Shown one piece after another: positions 29,479 through 36,519 of a stretch of 39,456 nt of DNA. How positions within the stretch are numbered: the first letter of the stretch is position 1; each line of letters begins with the position of its first letter. The notes below the pieces were generated by a model. It made no database searches. It was given only the letters and a program-made list of their open reading frames with translations, and was not told where the DNA came from. The stretch lies in IMG/VR virus record IMGVR_UViG_3300045988_145861, positions 1-39,456 of that record. The stretch is one strand, 5' to 3'. Position numbers and translations under genes: made by a program. The DNA comes from a virus.

Positions 29479-30452
29479 GCACAGGCTCCTTCGATGGCGA
29501 TCAGGCTGGGCTGGCTGGTGGGCTGGTGGTTGGGGTCGAGGCTGTCCGCGAGGGCGAGCCACCCGTTGACGCGGTCGTCGGTGGTGGCACGCGGGGCGGG
29601 GCCTCGGTTCGGCTGAGTGTGCTGTTCCTGGCACCTGCGCGCCCAGTTGCGCCACGTGGCAGCCCAGTCGGCGCGGACGCCGCGCTGCCCTGAGAGCGAT
29701 TGCCAGTAGTCCCGAAAGCGGTCGACCTCGACGGCGTTCGCCGCGGCGGGGGCGTTGGCGCGGGTCCAGTCCGCGAGGGCCTGGTCCGGCTGCCACCCGT
29801 CAGGGAGCCTGGTTCCACGCGAGGCCCGCGCTCGCGGTGAAGGCTTCTTGGCTTCGACGGTGTTGGCGCTCGCGGTTGCCGGCGCCGCGTCAGCGGCGAC
29901 GGTCTGAGTCTCAGCGACGGCGAGGGTGAGGATTTCGGATGAGGGGGGAACTAAAAGGGGAGTAGTAATACTTTCTTTTCTCTCTTCTCTTTTCTCTTTG
30001 CTCCGCGTGTCACGCCCCATGTCACGCCCCATGTCACGCCCCATGTCACGCGTGACATGCTCCGGTTCGCCCTGTTCGGACTTTCGGGCGCGCTCGCGGG
30101 CTTTTCTTGCCCTCGCGGCGGCGCGTTTTGCGTCGTTTTTTGCCTGGGTGTCACGGTAGGGGGCGTTCCATTTGAGCCAATTTGTCACGCTTACGGCGGC
30201 GTGACTTTTTGTGACAAGACCGTGACTTTCACACTCTGTCACGCGTGACATTGCGTCGGGGATGCCGAGGCGGTTGACGGCGACTTCGAGTGGGATGACG
30301 CCGTCGGTTTCGGGGTGTGCTGCGCACCAGGCGAGGGCGCGCACATACCACAGCTCGGCGTCGGGGCCGACGGCGATAATTGCGGGATCGTCGTAGTACG
30401 CGGCTGCGAGGGCCGCGTAGCGGCCGGGCCGCTTGAAGCCGGTGCGTGCCAT
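29475..30452 (-). CDS. Replication initiator / replisome-organiser-like protein
   Basis: Two-domain layout: an N-terminal winged-helix-like region, a low-complexity linker (RDMGRDMGRDMGRD, KEKREERKE), and a C-terminal LPDGWQPD...FRDYW...DWAATWRNWARR typical of DnaD/organiser-type phage initiators. Iterons lie inside the gene. Confidence 0.6.
   Translation of the reverse strand: MARTGFKRPGRYAALAAAYYDDPAIIAVGPDAELWYVRALAWCAAHPETDGVIPLEVAVNRLGIPDAMSRVTECESHGLVTKSHAAVSVTNWLKWNAPYRDTQAKNDAKRAAARARKARERARKSEQGEPEHVTRDMGRDMGRDMGRDTRSKEKREERKESITTPLLVPPSSEILTLAVAETQTVAADAAPATASANTVEAKKPSPRARASRGTRLPDGWQPDQALADWTRANAPAAANAVEVDRFRDYWQSLSGQRGVRADWAATWRNWARRCQEQHTQPNRGPAPRATTDDRVNGWLALADSLDPNHQPTSQPSLIAIEGACA
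29951..30250. other. Candidate origin of replication: AT-rich tract, 12-bp iterons and TGTCACGCGTGACA palindromes
   Basis: By my count 29961-30000 is about 30% G+C. TGTCACGCCCCA x3 at 30008-30043, TGTCACGCGTGACA at 30044-30057 and 30237-30250, and further GTCAC/GTGAC cores at 30149, 30183, 30199, 30211 and 30221. Confidence 0.6.
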
Positions 30453-30643
30453 TAGCTCATCCTTTCGTCTGGCTCTATGCGGATCTCAATCTGTTGGTAG
30501 TCGGCAAGCGCGTAACCGCTGATGTCTGCGATCACCCACCCGGTTGGGATGGTCTGTAGCGCCTCGATGAGTTCGCCGGGGTCGATCCGTTCGCCGTGTT
30601 CGACGCGGATTGTGAGTAACTCGGTACGGACTGCGCTAAGCAT
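30452..30643 (-). CDS. Small-protein family member P1 (63 aa)
   Basis: Track ORF. Shares a strand-helix-strand-strand pattern with five other small ORFs (see findings). Confidence 0.55.
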   Translation of the reverse strand: MLSAVRTELLTIRVEHGERIDPGELIEALQTIPTGWVIADISGYALADYQQIEIRIEPDERMS

Positions 30644-30833
30644 CTTCGTGTTTCCGCTCTGGCTGCGTGTAGTAGGTGATTTCTGTGACGGCCTGGTAGC
30701 CCTGCTCCACTGTCTCGATGGTGAGCACGCGGGCGGTGTCAGGTAGGCCGGTAATCGCCTTGGCGAGCTGTTCGGGGTCGATTCCGAACGACGCGTTGAA
30801 GCGCACGGTTGTGTGCCTGATATTCCTGGGCAT
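30636..30833 (-). CDS. Small-protein family member P2 (65 aa from ATG 30833)
   Basis: TAATG stop/start overlap with P3. Confidence 0.55.
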   Translation of the reverse strand: MPRNIRHTTVRFNASFGIDPEQLAKAITGLPDTARVLTIETVEQGYQAVTEITYYTQPERKHEDA

Positions 30834-31042
30834 TACTGGGCCTCCCAAGGCATTACTGTGGTGTAGTAGATAGCGACGCAGCGCGTTGGAATCGGCCCGT
30901 CATCTTCGGTGATACGCATTTCAACGATGTCTGAGTAGACGGGCATTTCATCGAGCATCCGTTGCACGGTTTCCGGGAGGATCGGCTTGTCATCTGTCAG
31001 TCTGAACGTCACATACATGGTCGGTTTGCGTTTGCGTGCCAT
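30833..31042 (-). CDS. Small-protein family member P3 (69 aa)
   Basis: Track ORF. Confidence 0.55.
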   Translation of the reverse strand: MARKRKPTMYVTFRLTDDKPILPETVQRMLDEMPVYSDIVEMRITEDDGPIPTRCVAIYYTTVMPWEAQ

Positions 31043-31043
31043 G

Positions 31044-31301
31044 TCATGGCCTCCTGTAGCGTGCGAAGGCTGGATTGTCGACGTACGTGATCGTGAGGGC
31101 CCGCTTTGCTACCTGGGTTATCTCGTGTGGCTCTTCCACTGGGATGTCAGCGACCGATAAGCCTGTGATCAACGCGCCGTCAGGCAGGGTGTCACTTAGC
31201 CCGCGAATAAGGTCGCTTTTTTCAAGCAGTTCCTTGCGGCCCCAGGTGAGCTTCACGGTGTGGGTGGTCTGCGCTTCGATCTTCCCCATGTCAGTTGCCA
31301 T
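31044..31301 (-). CDS. Small-protein family member P4 (85 aa; alternative start at 31289)
   Basis: Track ORF. Confidence 0.5.
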   Translation of the reverse strand: MATDMGKIEAQTTHTVKLTWGRKELLEKSDLIRGLSDTLPDGALITGLSVADIPVEEPHEITQVAKRALTITYVDNPAFARYRRP

Positions 31302-31491
31302 TCTCGGCGGGCTCGCGGTAGGCGATGACGAGGCGGCGGCCTTCGTGAAGGGGGGTCTGCCGGTCTACGGTCATGTCGTCGATGACTGCGCCTGGCTTGA
31401 GTTGTGCGAGTAGGGCGGTCACGACGGAGGGTGTGACGCCGTCGGCGCGGTCGAACGTGACCGTGAAATGGCCTCGGATGTAGTGCTTCAT
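31291..31491 (-). CDS. Small-protein family member P5 (66 aa)
   Basis: Track ORF with a 4-nt overlap onto the RusA-like gene. Confidence 0.55.
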   Translation of the reverse strand: MKHYIRGHFTVTFDRADGVTPSVVTALLAQLKPGAVIDDMTVDRQTPLHEGRRLVIAYREPAENGN

Positions 31492-31874
31492 TTGGTCTCC
31501 TGTTCCTGAATTATGAGGGTCACCGTGTGGATGCCCTTGGGCGATTTTTGCGGGTCTCGCGCGAAGGCAACGAGGGGTAGGTGCGTGTGGTCGTCGTCGT
31601 CCCAGACGCGGGCGTCCACGAGGCCGTCAATGATGGCCTTCACGGTTGGTTCGGCGTTGGTGGGGTCGGCGCGCCCCTTGGTGGGGTAGCCGATCATGGT
31701 TGTGACGATGCTGGGGCCGAGGCGACTGCCTGCCAGGCCGTGGATGCGGGCCTCGCTGGCTGCGTAGGCTCGGAGCATCCGTGTGCGTCGCATCCGCGTT
31801 GACCAGTGGAGTCTCTGGTTAGCGGTGAGCCACAGGGCTTTGTGGACGCCGATTGTGAGCGTGTGACGGCTCAT
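31488..31874 (-). CDS. rusA: RusA-like Holliday junction resolvase (128 aa)
   Basis: GRADPTNAEPTVKAIIDGLVDARVWDDDDH matches the RusA DPDN...D.L...DD pattern. ATG 31874 overlaps the upstream stop. Confidence 0.7.
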   Translation of the reverse strand: MSRHTLTIGVHKALWLTANQRLHWSTRMRRTRMLRAYAASEARIHGLAGSRLGPSIVTTMIGYPTKGRADPTNAEPTVKAIIDGLVDARVWDDDDHTHLPLVAFARDPQKSPKGIHTVTLIIQEQETK

Positions 31875-32719
31875 TTGTCGTCCATATGCGTTAGGGCGAC
31901 TGCGGCGGCGTGGGCGGCCTGTAGGGGCACGGTGCCCGAGTAGAGCAGGCCCATGCGCTGGTCGTGGGTGAGGCGCATGTCCGGCGTGCTCACGTAGCCG
32001 ATAGGTAGCCCCATCATCCACTCGACGAAGCCGAGGGACAGGCGGCCCGGGGCGGGGCTGGTGGGCAACGTGTACAGGGGATACGGGTACCGTTCGCCGG
32101 TGACTTTCTCCCAGTGTTCGAGTGCCCGGCTGTCGGCCTTTCCTTCCATGTCGGCGCGCGCCCACCTGTCTGCCTCGCTGTCGAGGTAGGTGCAGTAAGC
32201 ACTCGGGCTGGTCCATAGGCTGCCGGTCCATGGGGCAGCGTCCAGGTACGCTTCGTTCACGCGTGGCGCGGGGCAGTCGTTGCGGACTCCTATCGCGTAC
32301 GAGCGTAGGCGGAGGTGGGGTGCGCCGACATCGTTCGAGCACATGCGAAGCCATAACGAGCGGTATCCGTGGCTGTCGAGGTATTCGCAGATGGGCACGG
32401 CTTCGTCGTTGGGGAGCTGCGCCTCGACGATGACGAGCGGCGGTTTGTAGCCTTCGTCGATAAGCGGCGCGCCCGTGGTCTGCCAGGTCGCATACCTGTT
32501 GATAGTGAGCACGTCCACCATCGGCGGCGGCGCGTCGATGACGGTGTGCGCGCCCGCATGGGGGTGGTGGTAGCGCATCGCCGTGCGTCCGGGGCAGTCG
32601 GCCGCCTGGCCGGGGTGTGCGTGCCAGGCGAGCGTCGCGCCGCCCAGCGCGGCGGCCACACCGATAGGGAGGCCACCGTAACCTGGGTCAATAGCGCCGA
32701 TGGTCAGTTCCGTAGTCAT
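31871..32719 (-). CDS. C5-cytosine-methyltransferase-like paralogue lacking the catalytic motifs (probable pseudoenzyme)
   Basis: Aligns by eye with 33712..34950. Motif I is GYGGL in both. Motif IV GSPCQ is replaced by LTINRY, ENV by EAQ, and GAPHQRAR by GAPHLRLR. The C-terminal FVEWMMGLPIGYV and SGTVPLQ are retained. Confidence 0.65.
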   Translation of the reverse strand: MTTELTIGAIDPGYGGLPIGVAAALGGATLAWHAHPGQAADCPGRTAMRYHHPHAGAHTVIDAPPPMVDVLTINRYATWQTTGAPLIDEGYKPPLVIVEAQLPNDEAVPICEYLDSHGYRSLWLRMCSNDVGAPHLRLRSYAIGVRNDCPAPRVNEAYLDAAPWTGSLWTSPSAYCTYLDSEADRWARADMEGKADSRALEHWEKVTGERYPYPLYTLPTSPAPGRLSLGFVEWMMGLPIGYVSTPDMRLTHDQRMGLLYSGTVPLQAAHAAAVALTHMDDK

Positions 32720-32994
32720 CGGTCGCTCCTGTTCTTCGGTGCGTCGTCTGCGGTGACCTCGGGGACAACCTTGATGTGCATAGGGCCGCGCTCATCAGGC
32801 GAGAAAACAACCAGGCTTCCAGCGTGCGCGAACCACCTGTACCCGCAGCACCCCGTCAGCCAATAGCCGGGATTGTTAACTTCGACGGCAAGCTCGCTGC
32901 CCTCATTGCGGACAGTCACGCCGAGGCCCCACGCTCTCAGGGCTTTCGTGTCGGCCTCGGGGTCGCCCGTGAGCCTGTAGGCATAGAAGTTCAC
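32716..32994 (-). CDS. Hypothetical protein (92 aa)
   Basis: The GTG at 32994 overlaps the upstream stop (GTGA). Confidence 0.45.
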   Translation of the reverse strand: MNFYAYRLTGDPEADTKALRAWGLGVTVRNEGSELAVEVNNPGYWLTGCCGYRWFAHAGSLVVFSPDERGPMHIKVVPEVTADDAPKNRSDR

Positions 32995-33299
32995 GCGAGT
33001 TCCTCCTCGGTGATGGCCTGGCCGGGGTGCGTGTACCAGGCGCGGAAGTCGCCCGCCGTGCGATTCGAGACGCGCAGCCTGCCAGGCGTGGACACGAGCA
33101 TGTCGCCTTCTATGGCCCACACGGTGGGGCCGGGCCCGGTCAGGTAGATCAAGCCGTCGTCGGTGCATGCGACCACCTTGCGGGCGATCTTCGCAATCGC
33201 AGTCGCGTTGTCGCGGGTCAGGCGCACCGCGCGCACCATGACGCGCTCCTGGTAGGTGCGCACGCCGTCAAGCCCGGCGAACGGGTCAAACGTAGTCAT
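32991..33299 (-). CDS. Hypothetical protein (102 aa)
   Basis: ATG 33299 follows GAGGAGGAAACAGG and overlaps the upstream stop (ATGA). Confidence 0.5.
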   Translation of the reverse strand: MTTFDPFAGLDGVRTYQERVMVRAVRLTRDNATAIAKIARKVVACTDDGLIYLTGPGPTVWAIEGDMLVSTPGRLRVSNRTAGDFRAWYTHPGQAITEEELA

Positions 33300-33715: not shown

Positions 33716-34950
33716 GAGCGTTCCTCCGTCCGCGCCGCTCGGATGAGCGTCCCGACCGCGAGCGCGGTTTGTTGTGGGACGACTCCGTTTCCGAGGAGCC
33801 GTAGTTGGTGCTCACGTGGCAGGTCGAGGTCGGTGACGTGGCCGTCTGGTAGGCCCATGAGCCATTCGACGAACCGTGTGGAGAGCTGGGGTTTGCCGCC
33901 TGGGCGGCGTGATGGTGTCGAAGGGGGTGGGGCTGCCCGGCCTGTGATCTGTTCCCATCGGGCGATCACTTTCGCGTAGGGTCCGAAGTGGGTGAGGTCG
34001 CTGCTGGTTGCTACCTCGTGCAGGTTCGGCCCGTATCCGGTGGATGACCTGGACGCGTTCACTGCCTGCGGTGTCGGGAGGAGTCCCCCTGTTGGGAGCA
34101 GGTCGTTTTCGACGATGATGGCCAGGTCCGTGACGCGCTCCCTGACTGGCTTTTTGCGCAGGTGCTCGGACGGGCTGTTTCCCGAGGGCTGGGCGACAGG
34201 TGTGGGGAGGAGCTGCACTGCCTGCGTGAGGCTGTGGCCTGTGCCCTCTGGGTGGCGGCCAGCTTTGTGGTCCGACGCGGTTGGCGTCGGGATCAGAGGG
34301 CAGTCACTTGGTCTTGTAGGCTCACGCTGTGGCCGCCTGCCCGCCGCTTTTCGGGGTGCTGGGGGCCTCCGCATGTCCCAAGGTTGGCCGTGGGGGTGGC
34401 CAATAAGGAAGAGGCGGGCGCGCTGGTGTGGTGCGCCGGCGTCGGAAGCTCGTATAACTGCCCAGTGACAGTCATACCCGAGGCCGGCCAGGTCTCCTGC
34501 CACACGGCCTGCTGCCCTGAGAGCAGGTCGAGTTGCTTGGTCTCCCAGCATTGTCGGCTCGGATTCCAACGGGCTATAGGCTCTTGCACTGAGGGCTCCT
34601 TGCACGTTTTCCCACACCACGAGGCGGGGTCTGATGGTTTCGATTGCGGCGGCCATGGATTCCCAGAGGCCCGAGCGTGTGCCGGTGGCCATGCCTGCGC
34701 GTTTGCCTGCGAGGCTGAGGTCTTGGCATGGGCTGCCGCCGCAGATGATGTCGACGGGTTCCACGTCTGCCCAGTCGATCTGGGTGATGTCCCCGAGGTT
34801 CGGGGTGGTGGGCCACCTGACGGCAGCGAGCTTGCAGGGACCGGGTTCAACGTCGCTGGTCCAGGCGACCCGCGCGTCGGGGTCTATGGCCATGGCGACC
34901 CCCATATCCAGGCCGCCGTACCCGGTGAACAGACTCCCGATGGTGGTCAT
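33712..34950 (-). CDS. DNA (cytosine-5)-methyltransferase
   Basis: Motif I LFTGYGGLDMG, motif IV GGSPCQDLSLAGKR, motif VI VVWENVQG, motif VIII GAPHQRARLFLIG, motifs IX/X FVEWLMGLPDGHV and LLGNGVVPQ. Confidence 0.92.
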   Translation of the reverse strand: MTTIGSLFTGYGGLDMGVAMAIDPDARVAWTSDVEPGPCKLAAVRWPTTPNLGDITQIDWADVEPVDIICGGSPCQDLSLAGKRAGMATGTRSGLWESMAAAIETIRPRLVVWENVQGALSARAYSPLESEPTMLGDQATRPALRAAGRVAGDLAGLGYDCHWAVIRASDAGAPHQRARLFLIGHPHGQPWDMRRPPAPRKAAGRRPQREPTRPSDCPLIPTPTASDHKAGRHPEGTGHSLTQAVQLLPTPVAQPSGNSPSEHLRKKPVRERVTDLAIIVENDLLPTGGLLPTPQAVNASRSSTGYGPNLHEVATSSDLTHFGPYAKVIARWEQITGRAAPPPSTPSRRPGGKPQLSTRFVEWLMGLPDGHVTDLDLPREHQLRLLGNGVVPQQTALAVGTLIRAARTEERS

Positions 34951-35183
34951 TGTTCCGCCAGCTCCTCGACTGAGATACCGACCTCCCCGGGCGCGGCGGT
35001 GGTGCTCGTGTAGCCGACAGCGAGTTTGGCGCTTTCGTTGAAGTATCCGGCTGGCCTGATCTGTATGTTGTCGATCATGGAGCCTTCGGGCAGGCGGAGC
35101 ATGATCGCGCCGAGGAGCGCGGAGGGGATACCCTTTCGCGGGTCGTAGGTGATGGTGAATACATCGCGGCGTTGCGTGCTCAT
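34947..35183 (-). CDS. Small-protein family member P6 (78 aa), detached copy
   Basis: VFTITYDPRKGIPSALLGAIMLRLPEGSMIDNIQI...KLAVGY follows the same pattern as P1-P5. Confidence 0.55.
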   Translation of the reverse strand: MSTQRRDVFTITYDPRKGIPSALLGAIMLRLPEGSMIDNIQIRPAGYFNESAKLAVGYTSTTAAPGEVGISVEELAEQ

Positions 35184-35493: not shown

Positions 35494-36519
35494 GCTGCGT
35501 CATCTCCCATGCCGAACAGGTTGAGGGGCGCTTCGATGCCCTGCGCGAAACGTGCTTTGATGAGCGGGATGTACCTGTCGTCGAGTTCGCAGCCGACCGC
35601 GCGCACGTTCTCCATGGCCGCCGCCTGCAGGGTTGTGCCCGACCCGGCGAACGGTTCGAGGATCAGCGCACCGGGCCGCACCACGAGACGGATCAGGTAT
35701 CGCATGAGCTCGAGGGGCTTCACGGTGACGTGCTGTACCCCCCCCCACGATGGGGCGCTCGCGCTTAGGGGCCTTCGGTTGGTATCTGAATACCGGCCAC
35801 ACGTGGTCGGGGGCGCCCTGCTGCACGGCGGCGGCCATGGCCTGCTCGCCCATGAGCAGGTTCGGCGGGTACGAGCCGCCCGCTGCGTCCATGCCTGCGC
35901 GAATGTTCATCGCGCCGGTGCCGTGCTCACGGACGTTGTCGACCAGGCGGCCCTCGAGAGGGCGTCGCGCGACGACGATGGGCTCCCACGCTGGTTTAAG
36001 GCCGACGCCCCAGCCTTCCCAGGTTTTGGCTTCGTCGGTGACAGGTTCGCCGGTGGCGTGGAGTTTGTGAGATGACATGTGCGTCGCGGTGGCCTCGTCT
36101 GCCCATTCGCGCACGTCGCGGCCTTCGCGTTGATCCAGGACGCCCGTGGCGCGGTCGAACGCTGATGAGAGGTCCATTCCGGCGGGTTTGCCGTCGGCTC
36201 GTATCCAGGCCATAGCGTCGCGGATCTCGAAGCCGGCGTCCTCGAGGGCGCTCGTGAGCCGGTGGTAGGTTCGGGGCGCGCTGAACGCGAGCAGGTAGCC
36301 GCCGGGCTTGATGACGCGCAGCGCCTCCTCTCCCCATGACTGCGCCCACGCCTGGAACCCCTGCGGGGTGGCCGTGTCCCACTTCTCGCCCGCGAAAATG
36401 ATCCCGTAGGGCGGGTCAGTGATGACCGCGTCGAAATGATCGGCGGGGAGCCTGCGCATGATGTCCCGGCAATCCCCCTGGTGCAGGGTGATGCCGTCGT
36501 ATAGGTCGATTCCGTTCAC
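35490..36519 (-). CDS. Beta-class (DPPY first, FxGxG last) N6-adenine/N4-cytosine DNA methyltransferase, frame-interrupted at a G9 tract (35738-35746)
   Basis: GTG 36519 overlaps the RecT stop (GTGA). N-terminal part: ITDPPYGI motif IV. After the G9 run the true continuation HVTVKPLELMRYLIRLVVRPGALILEPFAGSGTT (motif I) is in the other frame (track ORF 35490..35723). 1030 nt is one nt too many. Confidence 0.8.

Follow-up and report, generated by a model that had tools for sequence, protein, structure and literature searches.

A maintained C5-cytosine methyltransferase homologue lacking catalytic motifs in temperate phages of Actinomycetaceae

The pseudoMT locus and the ancestry of its product

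The window analyzed here is a stretch of viral DNA of 39,456 nucleotides (39.5 kb, 65% G+C), positions 1 to 39,456 of IMG/VR record IMGVR_UViG_3300045988_145861. The gene of interest encodes a 282-residue protein that has the fold of a C5-cytosine methyltransferase (C5-MTase) and lacks the catalytic cysteine of that class. We refer to the gene and its product as pseudoMT. Almost all genes of the window lie on the minus strand, and they include genes for an integrase, a RecT-like protein, a replication initiator, a single-stranded DNA-binding protein, and a RusA-like resolvase, as well as open reading frames (ORFs) of portal or terminase size. Contigs related to the window are 36 to 41 kb long, and the window looks like a complete temperate siphovirus genome.

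The pseudoMT ORF begins with ATG, ends with TGA, has a G+C content at third codon positions (GC3) of 0.82, and is preceded by AGGAG 6 nucleotides ahead of the start. It overlaps each of its neighbors by an ATGA tetranucleotide, the gene for a 92-residue protein upstream (CGATGACT) and the RusA gene downstream (AAATGAGCC). All five junctions from the C5-MTase gene through the RusA gene are 4-base overlaps, either ATGA or GTGA. This arrangement agrees with the translational coupling to both neighbors that had been described in a first-pass annotation, which was made from the sequence alone. The same annotation placed an active C5-MTase two genes upstream of pseudoMT. The distance is larger, because three genes (the DUF4326 gene and the genes for proteins of 102 and 92 residues) intervene. 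The features of the locus are collected in Table 1.

Table 1. Positions of pseudoMT, its motifs, and the genes of the surrounding run in the window, with the chimeric gene of a related locus
Feature	Position	Strand	Evidence or remark
pseudoMT coding sequence (C5-methyltransferase-fold pseudoenzyme, 282 aa)	31871..32719	-	ORF list, hhalign, AF2, Foldseek
Motif I remnant, aa 8-17, GAIDPGYGGL	32669..32698	-	glycine loop kept; AdoMet-stacking Phe changed to Asp/Asn
Former motif II, aa 32-37, WHAHPG	32609..32626	-	ribose-binding Asp/Glu changed to His35, invariant
Former motif IV, aa 68-77, VDVLTINRYA	32489..32518	-	no Pro-Cys; following catalytic loop ~17 aa shorter
Motif VI remnant, aa 95-101, LVIVEAQ	32417..32437	-	Glu99 invariant, aligns with M.HhaI E119
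Motif VIII, retained, aa 131-141, VGAPHLRLRSY	32297..32329	-	RxR intact
Small-domain (TRD) remnant, aa 147-228	32036..32281	-	one 'W(P/T)(T/S)PSAYDT' element and the 'ALEHWEKVTGERYPYP' segment kept
Motifs IX-X region, aa 229-268	31916..32035	-	FVEWMMGLPIGYV kept; motif X GNGVVPQ changed to YSGTVPLQ
C5-MTase, complete, 412 aa	33712..34950	-	motifs I, IV (GGSPCQD), VI (ENV), VIII, IX, X; PF00145 113 bits; NCBIfam dcm 102 bits
DUF4326 gene, 139 aa	33296..33715	-	Pfam 77.7 bits; between the two methyltransferase-fold genes
102-aa gene, no assigned function	32991..33299	-	in nearly all related loci and phage xhp1
92-aa gene, GTG start, no assigned function	32716..32994	-	translationally coupled to pseudoMT
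RusA-like Holliday junction resolvase gene	31488..31874	-	PHROG phrog_34, E 1e-14
L100 chimera, protein P0361	L100 5001-6365		…LLYSGTVPLQAAHAVAVGLTQMGDQ

The relationship of pseudoMT to the 412-residue C5-MTase was evident in BLASTP as two collinear blocks, with E values of 1e-10 for the C-terminal block and 2e-05 for the N-terminal block. When a profile of 24 pseudoMT family members was aligned with one of 28 active relatives in hhalign, 270 columns were aligned with a probability of 100% and an E value of 7e-45, bearing out the earlier statement that pseudoMT aligns along the C5-MTase. The family profile also matches M.HhaI in the Protein Data Bank (PDB) sequence set. AlphaFold2 (AF2) gave a model with a predicted local distance difference test score (pLDDT) of 93.7 and a predicted template modeling score (pTM) of 0.92 when 95 active relatives were added to the alignment; with the 24 close family members alone the pLDDT was 56. 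The nearest structures to the model in Foldseek were M.HhaI, M.HaeIII, DNMT5, DNMT3A/B, DNMT1, and DNMT2, with a probability of 1.00, and pseudoMT, like M.HhaI, combines a large and a small domain in a class I methyltransferase fold. Because of the agreement among the BLASTP, profile, PDB, and AF2/Foldseek results, the fold and the homology are not in doubt, and pseudoMT is confirmed as a C5-MTase homologue by fold and ancestry.

Curated family models respond poorly to pseudoMT. Pfam PF00145 scored 16.5 bits, under its gathering cutoff of 22, and matched residues 110 to 151 only; the NCBIfam dcm model (TIGR00675) gave no match. By fold and ancestry, pseudoMT is a member of the C5-MTase superfamily, yet it fails the defining catalytic features and the curated thresholds. 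Among active enzymes, the co-resident C5-MTase family is one of the nearest relatives of pseudoMT, scoring a median of 100 bits against the pseudoMT profile; the corresponding figure for the 142 best other representatives is 84 bits. These scores make a common origin within the phage lineage plausible, and the term "paralogue" used in the first-pass annotation is therefore reasonable. In the window, pseudoMT is a degenerate paralogue of an active C5-MTase in the same genome.

Motif losses, conservation, and distribution

Methylation at C5 requires attack of a cysteine on C6 of the cytosine, a catalytic loop that closes, S-adenosylmethionine (AdoMet) held by motifs I to III and X, and a target recognition domain (TRD) that reads the site. 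The state of the corresponding motifs in pseudoMT was compared with MAFFT, with hidden Markov models (HMMs) against PDB sequences, and with hhalign, and conservation was evaluated over 120 family members. The profile alignment places a gap in pseudoMT opposite the catalytic cysteine. None of the 120 sequences provided a conserved cysteine in the loop between beta4 and alphaC (positions 72 to 80), where the closest approach is a cysteine at position 75 in 8 of the 120. The model places the sole conserved cysteine of the family, C111, in helix alphaD and not in the beta4 loop. The absence of the motif IV Pro-Cys that had been claimed from the sequence therefore stands. A nucleophile that had simply been misaligned was considered and rejected, since all three alignment methods agree and no conserved cysteine is found near beta4; this is also the outcome of the formal profile comparison that had been proposed as a check.

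The losses extend beyond those previously listed for this gene. Besides the Pro-Cys, pseudoMT lacks the motif I phenylalanine, the motif II acidic residue, the motif III aspartate (at a position that is variable in the family), about 17 residues of the catalytic loop, and about 90 residues of the TRD, in which a single 'PTPxAxD' element is left where the active enzyme has three. Helices are modeled in the small-domain remnant at residues 178 to 191 and 198 to 207. The family is net acidic, with a median isoelectric point of 6.0 and a net charge of -6, and has lost the basic segments that the active enzyme has in its TRD.

Other elements persist. The alignments confirmed that the GYGGL of motif I is retained, as had been noted. 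It was overstated that every chemistry-bearing motif is altered: this holds for motifs IV and VI but not for motif VIII, in which R137 and R139, each present in 117 of the 120 sequences, align with M.HhaI R163 and R165; the histidine of the motif VIII pattern GAPHxRxR is usual in the subfamily. The reported loss of ENV in motif VI is similarly partial. The Asn-Val pair is gone, and variable residues (AQ, VQ, or TE) stand in its place, but the glutamate remains as the invariant E99. The C-terminal motif that had been described as retained is intact in motif IX, where FVEWMMGLP.GYV is kept, but not in motif X, in which GN has become YS. Invariant residues specific to the family include H35, T72, and N74. 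A new histidine-rich metal site formed by H33, H35, H51, and H52 was also considered and has been largely rejected, as H33 and the equivalent of H51 occur in active relatives as well and only H35 is new.

All four of the requirements for C5 methylation are compromised in pseudoMT, and, judged by what is known of structure and function in M.HhaI, catalysis of this reaction is therefore very unlikely. As judged from the residues replaced, pseudoMT has probably lost AdoMet binding as well as catalysis.

Despite these losses, pseudoMT is maintained rather than decaying, as had been suggested from its intact frame. With pseudoMT peptides as bait, we gathered 82 loci from collections of viruses, genomes, and metagenomes. 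The 58 unique complete copies of pseudoMT in these loci are all intact, at 279 to 288 residues, across divergence down to 58 to 60% identity, with a synonymous divergence (dS) of about 0.7. The median pairwise ratio of nonsynonymous to synonymous substitution (dN/dS) was 0.37 for pseudoMT, compared with 0.25 for the C5-MTase, 0.21 for RusA, and 0.36 for the 102-residue protein. The frameshifts, stop codons, and neutral substitution of a decaying pseudogene are thus not what these copies display. Conservation is distributed unevenly along the protein. Positions conserved in at least 90% of sequences make up 33 of 38 in residues 1 to 38 and 9 of 11 in residues 65 to 75 (both in the former cofactor cleft), 33 of 42 in motifs IX-X, and 43 of 81 in the small-domain remnant. 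Helices alphaC and alphaD are variable, and other segments have more than 85% invariant positions. This uneven pattern indicates that pseudoMT is under selection for something and is not a relic.

The family is large and narrowly distributed. A protein database search returned 369 clusters at an E value of 0.001 or below, and the best 120 of these are all 278 to 291 residues long and 65 to 100% identical. At 90% identity there are at least 369 clusters, and the cluster of the window's own protein has 213 member sequences. Among the 1.8 billion representatives of a sequence library, it amounts to essentially one 50%-identity cluster plus fragments, and the next matches are ordinary C5-MTases with PC and ENV. 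The members found all come from uncultured phages and prophages of Actinomycetaceae, with hosts represented by metagenome-assembled genomes of Actinomyces and Schaalia; the phage of the window is a temperate phage of oral or gut Actinomyces-type bacteria. No cultured phage record carrying pseudoMT was found, and a megablast search of the region against cultured phages returned only a 72%-identical C5-MTase stretch in Propionibacterium phages.

Relation to the neighboring C5-MTase and possible functions

The state of the C5-MTase gene could be scored in 48 unique loci with enough upstream sequence. It is intact in 38 of these and truncated, partial, frameshifted, or absent in the other 10. The intact enzymes range from 334 to 449 residues, with TRDs of many different lengths, beside the same pseudoMT. 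The pseudoMT gene is intact in all 48, including the 10 without an intact C5-MTase. In this sample pseudoMT is kept more faithfully than the adjoining live enzyme. In two loci that have a C5-MTase remnant in common (L018 and L060), 18 synonymous and 17 nonsynonymous changes separate the two copies of pseudoMT, a dN/dS of 0.32. Consistent co-occurrence with an active partner and dependence on it were thus not observed. The pairwise distance matrices of pseudoMT and C5-MTase were correlated with a rho of 0.12, within the range for neighboring gene pairs overall (-0.06 to 0.21), in a test of low power because the phages are highly mosaic and all pairs are nearly uncorrelated. The gene to which pseudoMT is anchored is not that of the C5-MTase, from which one to three other genes separate it, but that of RusA, which directly follows it in all related loci. 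Only 38 of the 82 loci collected, or about half, have the gene for the 92-residue protein, and an obligate two-gene cassette of this gene and pseudoMT was therefore rejected.

The reverse situation is found in the cultured Actinomyces phage xhp1, whose host is Schaalia odontolytica XH001. This phage has the DUF4326 gene, an intact C5-MTase that is 72% identical to that of the window, the 102-residue gene, and RusA, and it has neither the 92-residue gene nor pseudoMT. The C5-MTase frame of xhp1 (L082 4017-5240, corresponding to about 29758-30981 of MG941013.1) is uninterrupted and has its 72% identity over 409 residues. The GenBank record of xhp1 annotates only fragments there, XHP1_00046 and, in a different frame, XHP1_00045, which is probably a misannotation. 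An alternative-frame peptide that matched XHP1_00045 and seemed conserved in the C5-MTase gene was dismissed as an artifact of DNA similarity and this fragmented annotation; xhp1 has one intact 409-residue frame.

A recombinant locus (L100, found in two samples, and also L101) encodes a 454-residue chimera in which the N-terminal part and TRD of the C5-MTase are joined to the last ~50 residues of pseudoMT. The DUF4326 gene, the genes for the 102- and 92-residue proteins, and most of pseudoMT are deleted there, and RusA follows directly. This chimera indicates that the paralogues recombine and that pseudoMT is not essential for the assembly of a full-length phage genome.

Taken across loci, gene content and substitution patterns show pseudoMT to be independent of the linked C5-MTase and weaken the model of an obligate partner. 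The first-pass annotation had put forward a DNMT3L-like regulatory partner of the active enzyme. In its full form, this model holds that pseudoMT is a subunit like DNMT3L or DRM3 that binds the 412-residue enzyme or a host C5-MTase to stimulate, stabilize, or retarget it and has no other role. It would account for the presence of inactive and active paralogues in one operon, and of both genes in 38 of the 48 loci, and for the resemblance of the net acidic pseudoMT to DNMT3L, which likewise has neither the cofactor residues nor the catalytic loop and has lost most of its DNA-recognition domain. Eukaryotes also offer precedents in which methylation requires an inactive C5-MTase paralogue (DRM3, PMC2965745; DNMT3L structures). 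However, as a partner of the neighboring enzyme such a subunit is disfavored by the 10 loci in which the active gene is lost or broken beside an intact pseudoMT, by continued purifying selection in the pair of loci that share the loss, and by xhp1, which has the active orthologue alone. The absence of a coevolution signal, although from a test of little power, the complete motif set of the active enzyme, and the anchoring of pseudoMT to RusA point in the same direction, and we consider the DNMT3L-like explanation doubtful. That pseudoMT is a relic without function, which persists through linkage or translational coupling to RusA, is hardly credible. The dN/dS of pseudoMT tops those of the neighboring genes, a recombinant phage without most of the gene exists, and rare deleted or frameshifted copies occur, as would be expected of a relic, but these observations are outweighed by the 58 intact copies at considerable divergence, by the long near-invariant segments, and by the far more frequent decay of the linked active gene. 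An enzyme with altered chemistry, in which the ligand of Glu99, Arg137, and Arg139 would still be a flipped cytosine, or else a free nucleotide, and would be acted on by a mechanism that does not involve cysteine, is very unlikely. These three residues, invariant or nearly so in the 120 sequences, are the cytosine-contacting residues of M.HhaI, and the family has invariants of its own (H35, T72, and N74 among them). However, with the catalytic loop and most of the TRD deleted, there is no obvious way for pseudoMT to flip or hold a base, the beta4 loop offers no conserved candidate nucleophile, and most histidines of the apparent new cluster (H33 and H51) are also found in active relatives.

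We think it rather likely that pseudoMT is instead a maintained pseudoenzyme that acts by binding and does so independently of the linked C5-MTase. According to this proposal, pseudoMT would have descended from the C5-MTase lineage of Actinomycetaceae phages. It keeps the two-lobed methyltransferase fold. It has no cysteine for C6 of cytosine and no loop to close over a flipped base, four of the side chains that hold AdoMet in active enzymes are missing, and the TRD is a small acidic remnant. The protein would be expressed within a tightly coupled early operon that runs from RecT through the methyltransferases to pseudoMT and RusA. Its binding surface would comprise the remodeled former cofactor cleft (residues 1 to 38 and 65 to 75), the small-domain remnant, Glu99, Arg137, and Arg139, and the candidate partners would be DNA or a base, a small molecule that resembles a nucleotide, or a protein of the host or the phage. 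The acidic character of pseudoMT and the loss of the basic TRD segments argue against strong sequence-specific DNA binding by pseudoMT alone. The role of the protein may be an accessory function of the sort found in phage anti-defense or DNA metabolism islands, one that the phage would not require to be viable. A variable accessory stretch near pseudoMT carries an N4/N6 methyltransferase, the C5-MTase, and DUF4326, a domain for which processing of phosphates on ADP-ribose derivatives in virus-host conflicts has been proposed (PMC9503650). The DUF4326 gene is present in a minority of related loci only. This neighborhood is a mild hint, by association, of counter-defense.

One specific form of binding is that of an anti-defense decoy or sponge; the first-pass annotation had raised a specificity or DNA-binding decoy against restriction or modification-dependent nucleases. 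The cleft would bind a nucleotide-like molecule, such as AdoMet, S-adenosylhomocysteine (AdoHcy), or an immune signal, or the body of the protein would mimic and poison the methyltransferase subunit of a host restriction, DISARM, or Druantia-type system. Conservation in pseudoMT is strongest at the cleft residues even though the canonical AdoMet contacts have been replaced, the protein is acidic and without DNA-binding parts, and the accessory island that encodes it is variable and also has genes for two DNA methyltransferases and DUF4326. Furthermore, C5-MTases are subunits of known defense systems, and the DruM and DrmMII models recognize the active paralogue. However, pseudoMT itself matched no anti-defense family and had no significant PADLOC match, and the argument is one of guilt by association, with no tie to a particular host system. 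In this specific form the proposal seems improbable; the small likelihood that we give it is counted within that of the independent non-catalytic binder.

Several points weigh against the independent non-catalytic binder. In some of the C5-MTase genes scored as "broken," the damage may stem from faulty assembly or have arisen very recently, and a host-encoded or distal C5-MTase could still serve as the partner of pseudoMT. Constraint on pseudoMT is moderate, with a dN/dS that is the highest of the neighboring genes, tied with that of the 102-residue gene. Badly damaged copies are undersampled because the loci were fished out with pseudoMT peptides. A few frameshifted or internally deleted copies do occur in public assemblies (P0126-P0128 and P0131), one of which has a 66-residue product with residues 1 to 38 joined to the last 28; loss of pseudoMT happens, yet it is rare in the data. 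The case that AdoMet binding has been lost is made from residue changes, and His35 could form a hydrogen bond with the ribose. The invariant E99 and the nearly invariant R137 and R139 could mean that a base is still bound or that residual chemistry takes place.

It is conceivable, although in our estimation unlikely, that pseudoMT is the first prokaryotic or viral C5-class pseudo-methyltransferase with a dedicated non-catalytic function. Its cleft might bind a nucleotide-like ligand, or the protein might dock onto a host defense or modification complex that contains a methyltransferase, blocking restriction or steering host methylation onto phage DNA. In either case, pseudoMT would represent a new class of phage counter-defense protein derived from the phage's own anti-restriction enzyme. 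The protein would be of high interest if it proved to be a counter-defense factor or a regulator of host methylation, and finding its ligand would reveal how phages turn an anti-restriction enzyme into a new tool. The family is abundant in human-associated metagenomes. Its members carry the automatically assigned database name 'cytosine specific methyltransferase', which is probably wrong functionally, and this annotation would mislead methylome and restriction-modification predictions for oral Actinomyces and Schaalia phages.

Other genes of the region and comparison with known systems

Additional features of the region concern the other methyltransferase genes and the small genes around them. 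The N4/N6 (DPPY) methyltransferase gene of the window (35490..~36520, minus strand) is split by a frameshift at a run of nine G residues (35738..35746). Relatives with an equivalent 8-nucleotide stretch (G8, TG7, or G6TG) have the gene intact as one ORF, and it is split in the same manner in the relatives with the G9 run (L007, L010, and L016) as in the window; it is also split in L023. This pattern looks like that of a phage methyltransferase that varies in phase by strand slippage; the alternative is an assembly error that recurs at the homopolymer. In L007 (about 990-2345) and L026, a deletion fuses the N4/N6 methyltransferase to the C-terminal part of the C5-MTase, from residue 82 or residue 328. 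The fusion products (P0370 and P0377) carry both PF01555 and PF00145, and pseudoMT in these loci is 100% identical to that of the window. An active C5-MTase relative of 644 residues (P0155) has a long insertion straight after the catalytic Pro-Cys (…GGTPCFAAGTPVLTHAGLRPIEQV…) that resembles an intein at the active-site cysteine. Small genes for proteins of 63 to 85 residues lie on the minus strand of the window as a run at 30452..31491, downstream of RusA, and as a single gene at 34947..35183, upstream of the C5-MTase. The genes at 31291..31491 and 34947..35183 match each other with an E value of 4e-8, and the rest have marginal similarity in the same register; these small genes may be paralogues.

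Neither a limited literature search nor the phage records yielded a described C5 pseudo-methyltransferase of a phage or bacterium. The ancestry of pseudoMT is shared with orphan phage and prophage C5-MTases of the actinobacterial subfamily with the signature 'FVEWMMGLPxGxVT', which include the 412-residue and xhp1 enzymes. The two groups have ~30 to 35% identity over 270 columns and have in common the motif I glycines, motifs VIII and IX, and the 'RWExVTGR..P.P' segment. What sets pseudoMT apart from these enzymes is the loss of PC, of NV from ENV, of the phenylalanine in motif I, the acid in motif II, the aspartate in motif III, and the GN of motif X, and of the catalytic loop and about 90 residues of the TRD.

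Two methyltransferase-related polypeptides encoded close to each other are also a feature of the split C5-MTases. M.AquI and M.EcoHK31I each consist of an alpha and a beta chain with complementary motif sets, both of which are needed for activity. The situation in the window differs from this in that the 412-residue protein has all of the motifs and the 282-residue protein is a degenerate copy of the whole fold rather than a complementary half.

Dead methyltransferase paralogues with regulatory roles are familiar in eukaryotes, as exemplified by DNMT3L, DRM3, and METTL14. By analogy, pseudoMT would be most like DNMT3L of mammals and DRM3 of Arabidopsis, which it resembles in fold, in its paralogy to an active C5-MTase, and in its conservation as a protein. 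The loss of the Pro-Cys and of the cofactor contacts is common to them all, as is the loss or reduction of the DNA-recognition part. However, DNMT3L and DRM3 are obligate partners, whereas pseudoMT persists where the active gene is missing, and xhp1 presents the reverse case. In contrast to DNMT3L and DRM3, pseudoMT has also kept motifs VIII and IX, a motif X remnant, and the motif VI glutamate, and it belongs to phages rather than eukaryotes. METTL14 and TRM6 are members of obligate eukaryotic heterodimers in other methyltransferase classes (N6-adenine and m1A). What they share with pseudoMT is the principle that a dead paralogue with a Rossmann fold is retained for a non-catalytic role.

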